From the NCBI RefSeq assembly GCF_048403405.1, contig NZ_CP183129.1: 64,000 nucleotides of DNA. The stretch is one strand, 5' to 3'. Both the position numbers and the translations under genes were made by a program. A model generated the notes under the pieces. That model saw only the letters and a program-made list of their open reading frames with translations, did no database searches and was not told the origin of the DNA. Source of the stretch: Escherichia coli (GTDB taxonomy: Bacteria; Pseudomonadota; Gammaproteobacteria; Enterobacterales; Enterobacteriaceae). This document shows positions 22,784 to 24,459 of this stretch, one piece after another; position 1 is the first letter of the stretch; the number at the start of each line of letters is the position of its first letter.

Positions 22784-23314
22784 ATGGCTATCACTGGCAT
22801 CTTTTTCGGCAGCGACACCGGTAATACCGAAAATATCGCAAAAATGATTCAAAAACAGCTTGGTAAAGACGTTGCCGATGTCCATGACATTGCAAAAAGC
22901 AGCAAAGAAGATCTGGAAGCATATGACATTCTGCTGCTGGGCATCCCAACCTGGTATTACGGCGAAGCGCAGTGTGACTGGGATGACTTCTTTCCGACTC
23001 TCGAAGAGATTGATTTCAATGGCAAACTGGTTGCGCTGTTTGGTTGTGGTGACCAGGAAGATTACGCTGAATACTTCTGTGACGCATTGGGCACCATCCG
23101 CGACATCATTGAACCGCGCGGTGCAACCATTGTTGGTCACTGGCCAACTGCGGGCTATCATTTCGAAGCATCAAAAGGTCTGGCTGATGACGACCACTTT
23201 GTCGGTCTGGCTATCGACGAAGACCGTCAGCCGGAACTGACCGCTGAACGTGTAGAAAAATGGGTTAAACAGATTTCTGAAGAGTTGCATCTCGACGAAA
23301 TTCTCAATGCCTGA
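22784..23314 (+). CDS. fldA: Flavodoxin 1
   Basis: Start set at [27 protein letters not shown] (176 aa), with the flavodoxin FMN-binding T/SxTGxT loop. The track ORF is a 39-codon upstream extension. Confidence 0.95.
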
Positions 23315-23330
23315 TGTGATGCGGCGTAGA

Positions 23331-23360
23331 CTCATGTCTACGCCGTATTAATAGATAATG
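23331..23360 (+). terminator. Hairpin downstream of fldA (ggcgtagactcatgtctacgcc)
   Basis: Perfect inverted repeat read in sequence; the T-tract is weak, so it may act as a stabilising stem-loop or partial terminator. Confidence 0.4.
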
Positions 23361-23519
23361 CCAATCAAAATAATTGCTACAAATTTGTAACTTTTGCTGT
23401 TGTACCTGTACAATGTCCCGGTGTTCAAGTGGCCTTGCCGTTGTAAATGTAAGCAGTGCCACGTTTTTATTAACAATATTTGCCAGGGACTTGTGGTTTT
23501 CATTTAGGCGTGGCAATTC

Positions 23520-23538
23520 TATAATGATACGCATTATC
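23520..23538 (+). promoter_or_regulatory. Fur box (tataatgatacgcattatc) in the uof/fur promoter
   Basis: 19-bp match to the Fur-box consensus GATAATGATAATCATTATC, overlapping the uof start codon. Confidence 0.75.
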
Positions 23539-23610
23539 TCAAGAGCAAATTCTGTCACTTCTCCTAATGAAGTGAACCGCTTAGTAACAGGACAGATTCC
23601 GCATGACTGA
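23524..23610 (+). CDS. uof: Upstream ORF of fur (leader peptide Uof)
   Basis: 28-codon ORF MIRIISRANSVTSPNEVNRLVTGQIPHD ending 8 nt inside fur; this is the known fur translational-coupling leader. Confidence 0.7.
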   Translation: MIRIISRANSVTSPNEVNRLVTGQIPHD

Positions 23611-24049
23611 TAACAATACCGCCCTAAAGAAAGCTGGCCTGAAAGTAACGCTTCCTCGCTTGAAAATCCTGGAAGTTCTTCAGGAGCCGGACAACCATCA
23701 CGTCAGTGCGGAAGATTTATACAAACGTCTGATCGATATGGGTGAAGAAATTGGTCTGGCTACGGTATATCGCGTACTGAACCAGTTTGACGACGCTGGT
23801 ATCGTCACCCGCCACAATTTTGAAGGCGGTAAATCCGTATTTGAACTGACACAGCAACATCACCACGATCACCTGATCTGCCTCGACTGCGGCAAGGTAA
23901 TCGAATTTAGTGATGATTCCATCGAAGCGCGTCAGCGTGAAATTGCCGCAAAACATGGCATTCGCCTGACTAACCACAGTCTCTATCTTTACGGTCACTG
24001 TGCCGAAGGCGATTGCCGCGAAGATGAGCACGCGCACGAAGGCAAATAA
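23603..24049 (+). CDS. fur: Ferric uptake regulator
   Basis: 148 aa, MTDNNTALKKAGLKVTLPRLKILEVLQ... with histidine-rich metal site (HHHDH) and C-terminal Cys motifs. Confidence 0.97.
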   Translation: MTDNNTALKKAGLKVTLPRLKILEVLQEPDNHHVSAEDLYKRLIDMGEEIGLATVYRVLNQFDDAGIVTRHNFEGGKSVFELTQQHHHDHLICLDCGKVIEFSDDSIEARQREIAAKHGIRLTNHSLYLYGHCAEGDCREDEHAHEGK

Positions 24050-24064
24050 GCCAGCCGGAACGAG

Positions 24065-24094
24065 AAAAGCCAACCTGCGGGTTGGCTTTTTTAT
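24065..24094. terminator. Rho-independent terminator after fur (aaaagccaacctgcgggttggcttttttat)
   Basis: Stem gccaacc/ggttggc followed by a T-run; lies between convergent fur and chiQ. Confidence 0.7.
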
Positions 24095-24132
24095 ACACGG
24101 GAAATAAGAAAAGCGAGAGTTACAGCTCTCAC

Positions 24133-24459
24133 TTATTTGTTATTACTGCGAATTTCCTGCCAGACCTTATCACAATCGGCTTTTACCGCCTGGTCATTAC
24201 CGGTTTGCGTTGCGCGCAGACACTGCTGATAATCCAGTACGCGTACACTTTCCTGGTCGGCAAAATGCTGATGTTGTCTCTCTTTCTTCAGCACGTTTAA
24301 CACGCTCTGGCAGGCTTCAATTTTTTCCGGCGAACCTTGCGCGGTGTTAATACAGGCGCTGTATGCCTCTTTCAGACGACTGTCTTCCTGTGGCGCGGTT
24401 GATTGCGCACAAGCTACCAGCCCCGATGCCATTATGGCGATGAGAATCAGTTTTTTCAT
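24133..24459 (-). CDS. chiQ: Lipoprotein ChiQ (YbfN)
   Basis: 108 aa with lipoprotein signal peptide and lipobox (MKKLILIAIMASGLVACAQ), immediately downstream of chiP. Confidence 0.85.
   Translation of the reverse strand: MKKLILIAIMASGLVACAQSTAPQEDSRLKEAYSACINTAQGSPEKIEACQSVLNVLKKERQHQHFADQESVRVLDYQQCLRATQTGNDQAVKADCDKVWQEIRSNNK

Follow-up and report, generated by a model that had tools for sequence, protein, structure and literature searches.

The fldA-uof-fur control region of an Escherichia coli chromosome: a known Fur box and leader ORF, and a covarying hairpin in the fur leader

Small upstream open reading frames (ORFs) that set the expression of the gene downstream, with a small RNA (sRNA) acting on the leader ORF itself, are known from thrL and ivbL, where the sRNA is GcvB (PMC7534054). 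The leader ORF uof stands in a similar relation to fur in E. coli, and PMC7534054 and PMC12683245, which cite Vecerek et al. 2007, describe translation of fur as coupled to that of uof and blocked by RyhB. Nucleotides G44 and C45 of RyhB are essential for this repression of uof and fur (PMC6191717). Moreover, the UCA at codon 6 of uof is read by MiaB-modified tRNA-Ser, which makes its decoding responsive to iron (PMC7466049, PMC11448259). Unlike thrL and ivbL, uof is coupled to its downstream gene via an 8-nt overlap rather than by attenuation, and the hairpin in its leader has no terminator following it; the junction was also compared with the overlapping stop-start coupling junctions ATGA and TGATG.

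Transcription of the locus is equally layered. Three promoters feed ybfE-fldA-uof-fur (PMC4161252), and co-transcription of fldA and fur is activated by SoxS (PMC12683245). Puof has been reported upstream of uof (PMC6191717, PMC7867234) and Pfur within it, with two mRNAs visible on Northern blots (PMC6191717). Both fur transcription starts have been placed within uof, and the Fur box overlaps the -10 element of Pfur-a (PMC7867234). A further parallel is fepA, where an early-coding stem-loop activates initiation and is the target of the sRNAs OmrA/B, according to the mention of Jagodnik et al. 2017 in PMC10342277.

At classical Fur-repressed promoters a 19-bp operator overlaps the -10 element, and the same holds at fur. 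Unlike those operators, however, the site at fur acts on the gene of the repressor itself, and the start codon of a leader ORF falls within it. Fur was reportedly footprinted on the Fur-box site of fur by de Lorenzo et al. 1988.

The uof-fur locus and its counterpart in K-12

The window, by which we mean the whole 64 kb stretch of E. coli DNA that was analysed, carries the gene order fldA-uof-fur-chiQ-chiP, with uof placed between fldA (which ends at 23314) and fur (which starts at 23603), as in K-12. The uof ORF occupies 23524..23610 on the plus strand: its ATG lies at 23524-23526, 28 sense codons encode the peptide MIRIISRANSVTSPNEVNRLVTGQIPHD, and a TGA at 23608-23610 closes the frame. Searched against NCBIfam, the peptide matches NF011344, 'fur leader peptide' (PRK14761), with 81.3 bits (cutoff 71) over positions 1-28 of 28. 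The fur CDS (23603..24049, plus strand, 148 aa) matches NF006999 with 309 bits (cutoff 146) over positions 1-147 of 148. The 28-codon uof ORF proposed in the initial annotation is therefore borne out by the sequence, by the RefSeq annotation and by the NF011344 match.

In K-12 MG1655 the annotated order is chiP-chiQ-fur-uof-fldA-ybfE, with uof (b4637, 'RyhB-regulated fur leader peptide') at 710639..710725 and fur (b0683) at 710200..710646, an overlap that is likewise 8 nt. The window is 99% identical to K-12 over the region, and the alignment holds three base differences between 23300 and 23660: one at 23455, in the intergenic DNA between fldA and uof (A in the window, T in K-12), one at 23563 within uof, and one at a synonymous position early in fur. 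The Fur box, the -35 and -10 hexamers and the position of the uof ATG are identical in the two genomes, as are the 28 codons in length, the UCA at codon 6 (23539..23541, plus strand, Ser), the 8-nt overlap ATGACTGA and the aligned part of Fur.

The same picture emerges across the species. A 361-nt stretch around the site finds a match of at least 95% identity in 5424 of 5426 complete E. coli genomes and is 100% identical in several, chiefly swine and human isolates; the RefSeq features under this match are 'uof: fur leader peptide' and fur. As an aside on copy number, the uof-fur region has no match in the other two of the 5426 genomes, some genomes hold two copies, and one copy among the complete genomes is plasmid-borne.

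The interval is thus very probably the standard, published and RefSeq-annotated fldA-uof-fur control region of E. coli. That this arrangement of fur and uof is a known one, as had been proposed, is upheld by the RefSeq annotation, the K-12 layout and both NCBIfam models, and the use of the locus as an internal check on the reading of the sequence succeeds, since coordinates and sequences agree base for base. The observation is correct but ordinary, and its interest is low because the feature is already known and annotated. It serves to confirm the window as ordinary E. coli chromosome and the first reading of it as accurate. The comparative additions reported below are modest: a start codon lying in the -10 and Fur box, a narrow distribution of uof, an unconstrained peptide and a covarying hairpin.

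The single base by which the window differs from K-12 within uof is a T>C change at 23563 (plus strand; alignment with K-12), which turns codon 14 from TCT (Ser) into CCT (Pro). Among the 5424 complete genomes, the exact 87-nt K-12 allele of uof occurs in 4810, the allele of the window in 393 and a Phe14 allele in 1, with other 87-nt variants making up the remaining 220 or so. Ser14Pro is therefore a minority natural allele, carried by 7% of complete E. coli genomes. Position 23563 is the second base of the loop of the leader hairpin described below, and we attribute the polymorphism of codon 14 in E. coli (Ser, Pro, Phe) to this location; Ser14Pro itself should be neutral. It could instead be argued that Ser14Pro alters function, either through slower translation of uof at the Pro codon or through changed access of RyhB or Hfq, in which case the arrangement would not be functionally intact. 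The change is, after all, non-synonymous and the sole difference from K-12 in uof. However, the Pro14 allele is fixed in those 393 genomes, the codon is also found as Phe, codons 14-15 are the most variable columns of uof between genera, and an unpaired loop base leaves the stem of a conserved hairpin unaltered, so that we find an effect of this kind most improbable.

The initial annotation had called the arrangement intact and had named a mismatch with the reference uof as evidence against it. When compared with K-12, the arrangement matches and the ORF, the Fur box, the overlap and the Ser-UCA codon 6 are all intact, but full identity with K-12 does not hold. A mismatch of the kind named is literally present, at 23563, and it is a natural minority allele that leaves these features unharmed.

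Fur box, promoters and the junction with fur

The Fur box TATAATGATACGCATTATC spans 23520..23538, is identical to that of K-12 and agrees with the 19-bp consensus GATAATGATAATCATTATC at 16 of 19 positions; it would serve as the operator for autorepression by Fe-Fur. On both strands of the 64 kb window it is the sole match at three or fewer mismatches, and 100 dinucleotide-preserving shuffles gave 0 chance matches. It begins at 23520, four nucleotides ahead of the uof ATG at 23524, exactly as first annotated.

The region's best sigma-70 match lies at the same place. A promoter scan put the -35 hexamer of Pfur, TTTTCA, at 23497..23502 and its -10 hexamer, TATAAT, at 23520..23525 (both plus strand), which with a 17-nt spacer agree with the consensus at 10 of 12 positions. 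The Fur box coincides with this -10, and the hexamer ends with the first two letters of the uof ATG, A and T. Two consequences follow from this packing. Bound Fur would shut off Pfur, since the box sits on its -10. Moreover, because the uof start codon lies inside the -10 and the Fur box, mutants of that codon also change the promoter or the operator, and experiments with them are confounded unless a foreign promoter is used.

From the promoter geometry, transcription from Pfur would be expected to start at approximately 23531-23533, within uof codons 3-4, which agrees with the placement of Pfur and of the fur starts inside uof in PMC6191717 and PMC7867234. A start inside uof leaves the Pfur transcript without the uof AUG; such a transcript cannot encode uof, and therefore coupling applies only to transcripts initiated upstream. 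A candidate for an upstream promoter, possibly Puof, is TTGTAA-18-TACAAT at 23385..23414 (plus strand), a match to the consensus at 9 of 12 positions that could yield a transcript containing uof.

At the other end of the ORF, uof ends 8 nt inside fur, again as first annotated: the fur ATG begins at 23603, the uof TGA occupies 23608-23610, and the shared nucleotides (23603..23610, plus strand) form the coupling junction. A Shine-Dalgarno-like AGGA lies at 23589..23592 (plus strand), 10 nt before the fur ATG. Its predicted duplex with the anti-SD is weak (-4.0 kcal/mol), and the block AACAGGAC is almost invariant in all 96 leaders that were aligned (see below).

Fur binding, coupling, the effects of RyhB and MiaB and the fur starts within uof are all reported in the literature, and together with the anatomy seen in the window they suggest the following scheme. 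Fe-Fur bound to the box at 23520-23538 would turn Pfur off, giving autorepression. Transcripts from Pfur would start about 7 nt past the -10, inside uof, and so lack its AUG, whilst the upstream promoters (Puof and those of fldA and ybfE) would supply longer transcripts with the whole of uof, the only ones on which it could be translated throughout. Ribosomes that finish uof at its UGA (23608-23610), which comes 5 nt after the fur AUG, would then feed initiation of fur through the overlap. Under iron limitation RyhB would block translation of uof and so lower Fur synthesis, and the UCA at codon 6 would make decoding of uof depend on the Fe-S enzyme MiaB. Autoregulation and leader-peptide coupling, which had been presented as one arrangement, are thus each supported by the literature but do not form a single arrangement, since they act on different transcripts. 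This is a nuance of emphasis and no error of the first reading.

The two controls would come together on one mRNA pool if Fur bound at 23520-23538 also acted as a roadblock to RNA polymerase arriving from Puof or fldA. The geometry fits, since all the upstream promoters precede the box, which itself sits at the 5′ end of uof. The literature examined offered no evidence of a roadblock, however, and the two mRNAs seen on Northern blots behave differently (PMC6191717), whilst co-transcription of fldA and fur is reported as activated by SoxS (PMC12683245). We regard a roadblock as unlikely, without dismissing it; it would in any case be compatible with autorepression at Pfur and coupling on the longer transcripts, which we continue to favour.

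Downstream of fur, an evident intrinsic terminator lies at 24068-24092 of the window, AGCCAACC-TGCG-GGTTGGCT followed by a T-run. A terminator scan omitted it and reported only a hairpin at 24111-24134 between fur and chiQ.

Distribution and selection of uof across Enterobacterales

To place the locus in a wider context, 120 fur loci of Enterobacterales were collected, one genome per species, by a scan anchored on the N-terminus of Fur. Of the loci examined, 68 carry the motif TATAATGA(G/T)ACGCA, placed 70-93 nt ahead of the fur ATG; they include loci of Enterobacteriaceae, Yersinia, Serratia, Pantoea and Edwardsiella. Further upstream they also have the block GGTTTTCATTT with the -35, which is likewise conserved across Enterobacterales fur loci.

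The reading frame that opens at the ATG in this box is far less constant. At 26 loci it reaches a TGA at fur +6 to +8 after 28 or 29 codons; these include Escherichia, Citrobacter, most Enterobacter, Leclercia, Kluyvera and Pseudocitrobacter, together with Phytobacter, Pseudescherichia, Siccibacter and Superficieibacter. A further six (Cedecea, Mangrovibacter and others) use a different frame: there the ORF opened by this ATG terminates in an ATGA overlap with fur. At 34 loci the frame closes early, including Klebsiella, Lelliottia and Shimwellia; in Salmonella arizonae and diarizonae a 1-nt deletion closes it at 16 codons, and in most Yersinia, Serratia and Pantoea loci it ends after 4. Closure in two Salmonella, two Klebsiella and four Yersinia loci and in Serratia and Pantoea falls within a range of 4-20 codons. 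The absence of uof had already been noted for Y. enterocolitica (PMC7867234).

On the sampled loci, uof is restricted to a subset of the Enterobacteriaceae, with none in Salmonella, Klebsiella, Yersinia or Serratia, and the -10/Fur-box motif that holds its AUG has a far wider distribution than the ORF. Since uof is absent from those four genera, the E. coli model in which RyhB and MiaB act via uof is not transferable to them.

Two unusual arrangements occur within Enterobacter. In Enterobacter asburiae, an ACA at codon 2 of fur removes the TGA of uof, and the ORF continues into fur, running 49 codons. In Enterobacter sp. R1 no stop separates the box ATG from fur, with which it shares its frame; use of that ATG would give a Fur of 172 aa with an N-terminal extension.

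We then asked what the sequence of uof reveals of selection. Across the 16 distinct sequences of the 28-codon class, the mean column entropies at the three codon positions are 0.40/0.30/0.41, in contrast to 0.04/0.02/0.85 for fur in the same genomes. Variation in uof shows no wobble excess and, therefore, the peptide does not appear to be under protein-type selection; the comparison gives no sign of codon-type selection on it. The conserved N-terminus of uof coincides with the -10/Fur box and the conserved C-terminus with the ribosome-binding region of fur. Even codon 6 varies, being TCA in Escherichia and Citrobacter and CCA in Enterobacter and Leclercia. Avoidance of stop codons in the uof frame did not reach significance in a column-shuffle test (P = 0.08), and therefore we do not claim selection for an open frame from sequence alone. 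The frame-preserving difference between the 28- and 29-codon classes and the near-universal openness of the frame within the clade are nevertheless suggestive of such selection.

These data bear on whether uof is a gene at all. It might be a chance ORF whose ATG exists only as part of the -10/Fur-box half-site TATAATG, its open frame being a lineage-specific accident with no role. The conservation of the ATG motif at loci where the frame closes after 4-20 codons would fit this, as would the lack of excess wobble variation and the P value of the shuffle test. Moreover, the main conserved promoter starts transcription downstream of the uof ATG, and the Shine-Dalgarno sequence of uof is unconvincing, its predicted anti-SD duplex of -3.6 kcal/mol placing it at the 23rd percentile among all ATGs of the window. 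Against this stand the experiments cited in the literature, in which uof is translated, fur is coupled to it and regulation is lost in RyhB G44/C45 mutants. The ORF is also open in 26 of the 28 Enterobacteriaceae loci with the box ATG in the uof frame, despite many substitutions in mid-ORF, the two length classes differ by a 3-nt indel that preserves the frame, and the six ORFs in another frame still end in an overlap with fur. We therefore consider a chance ORF very unlikely and retain uof as a probably translated leader. A literature search for ribosome-profiling evidence on uof gave nothing usable. At 23567-23575 of the window, across the loop and 3′ arm of the hairpin, the +1 frame holds a mini-ORF of three codons, ATGAAGTGA (M-K-stop), which is probably trivial.

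A covarying hairpin and predicted RyhB pairing in the fur leader

Both folds of the leader contain a hairpin, UCACUUC-UCCUAAU-GAAGUGA, at 23555..23575 (plus strand), which corresponds to uof codons 11-18 and lies 28-48 nt upstream of the fur AUG in the window. In the uof alignment the columns of its stem are invariant or covarying, and those of its loop (codons 13.3-15) are the most variable. Taken over its full length, the leader shows no unusual degree of structure, for its predicted minimum free energies do not improve on those of shuffled sequences (z = -0.03 and -0.37); the local hairpin alone stands out.

Among 103 distinct leaders, 98 have a hairpin in the interval -66 to -17, and the best one starts at -51 to -46 in 67 of these 98. 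Leader hairpins average -5.4 kcal/mol compared with -3.2 in shuffles, and 45% reach -6 kcal/mol or lower against 12% of shuffles. The stems themselves differ widely: ACUUCC/GGAAGU in many Enterobacteriaceae, ACUCCC/GGGGGU in the Enterobacteriaceae isolate LSJC7, CGCUCA/UGAGCG in Cedecea, GCCC/GGGC in Mangrovibacter, AGGCU/AGCCU in Yersinia, Dickeya and Pectobacterium, and AGGCG/CGCCU in Serratia.

In a MAFFT alignment of 32 sequences, 89.2% of cells are paired and 5 of 8 base pairs show change on both sides. An alignment of 96 leaders, related sequences fitted to a covariance model, has 84.9% of cells paired and both-sided change in 8 of 8 pairs; 48 cells are changed on both sides, compared with 13.3 ± 3.1 in shuffles and at most 16 in slid controls. 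In this alignment Yersinia, Serratia, Pectobacterium and the remaining distant families have their hairpins in insert columns, so that the formal pair counts are mainly those of Enterobacteriaceae and the support beyond that family is per-sequence hairpin prediction. On these grounds, compensatory changes preserve the hairpin in Enterobacteriaceae, and predicted positional equivalents with unrelated stems are present in Yersiniaceae, Pectobacteriaceae, Erwiniaceae and Hafniaceae. The covariance models of Rfam 15 gave only chance-level hits over 23250-23700, to mir-86 (E = 1.8) and whalefall-1 (E = 2.3).

By this comparison, no other RNA feature of the leader appears to be as widely conserved as the covarying hairpin at 23555-23575. 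It is kept in taxa that lack uof, and therefore any role it has must be independent of uof; in Salmonella, uof is destroyed by a 1-nt deletion that falls in the hairpin loop itself. Candidate roles are in the stability of fur mRNA, in access of Hfq or RyhB, or in initiation of fur. Like fepA, the fur leader has a small hairpin downstream of a start codon and beside a predicted sRNA pairing site. The fur-leader hairpin starts at +32 of uof, that of the fepA type at about +19, and the fur-leader hairpin is conserved in taxa without the ORF, so that no role of it could depend on initiation of uof.

We tentatively suggest, as a possibility rather than a probability, that the hairpin and not uof is the ancestral and most constrained post-transcriptional element of the fur leader. 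The ORF would then be a later, lineage-restricted overlay, its AUG a by-product of the -10/Fur-box motif and its peptide unconstrained, and it may range over Escherichia, Citrobacter, Enterobacter, Kluyvera and their relatives. The hairpin is in this respect a candidate conserved regulatory element. If it proves both undescribed and functional, the view of how Salmonella, Klebsiella and other species without uof control Fur synthesis would need revision.

Lastly, we considered where RyhB might pair. The predicted core, GAGCAAATTCTGTCA (23543..23557, plus strand), abuts the 5′ arm of the hairpin, a placement that was inferred by duplex prediction. There, GAGCAAA...GTCA would pair with RyhB nt 37-48, including G44 and C45, at -12.1 kcal/mol, a value that is no outlier against a window background with a mean of -8.6 and a 5th percentile of -14.9. 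Full-length RNAduplex runs of RyhB against 180-nt tiles had been discarded, as they returned meaningless long-range structures and ranked the uof tile 1045 of 1420. The seed-restricted scan of 24-nt targets adopted instead did not single out the uof site against the window background. The published RyhB-uof interaction has likewise been described as not computationally predictable with PETcofold.

Two predicted duplexes elsewhere in the locus may be recorded. The stretch 23442-23465 is predicted to pair with RyhB nt 35-55 at -15.3 kcal/mol, stronger than the site within uof, and the base at 23455 that differs from K-12 falls in this complementary stretch. Of the RyhB-seed duplexes predicted near the locus, the strongest (-17.8 kcal/mol) joins 23668-23688, CCTGGAAG..., to RyhB nt 43-61. 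This site corresponds to fur codons 22-29 and thus lies in the coding region, outside uof; a site in the fur coding sequence has also been predicted for RyhB1 and RyhB2 of Yersinia (PMC10342277).
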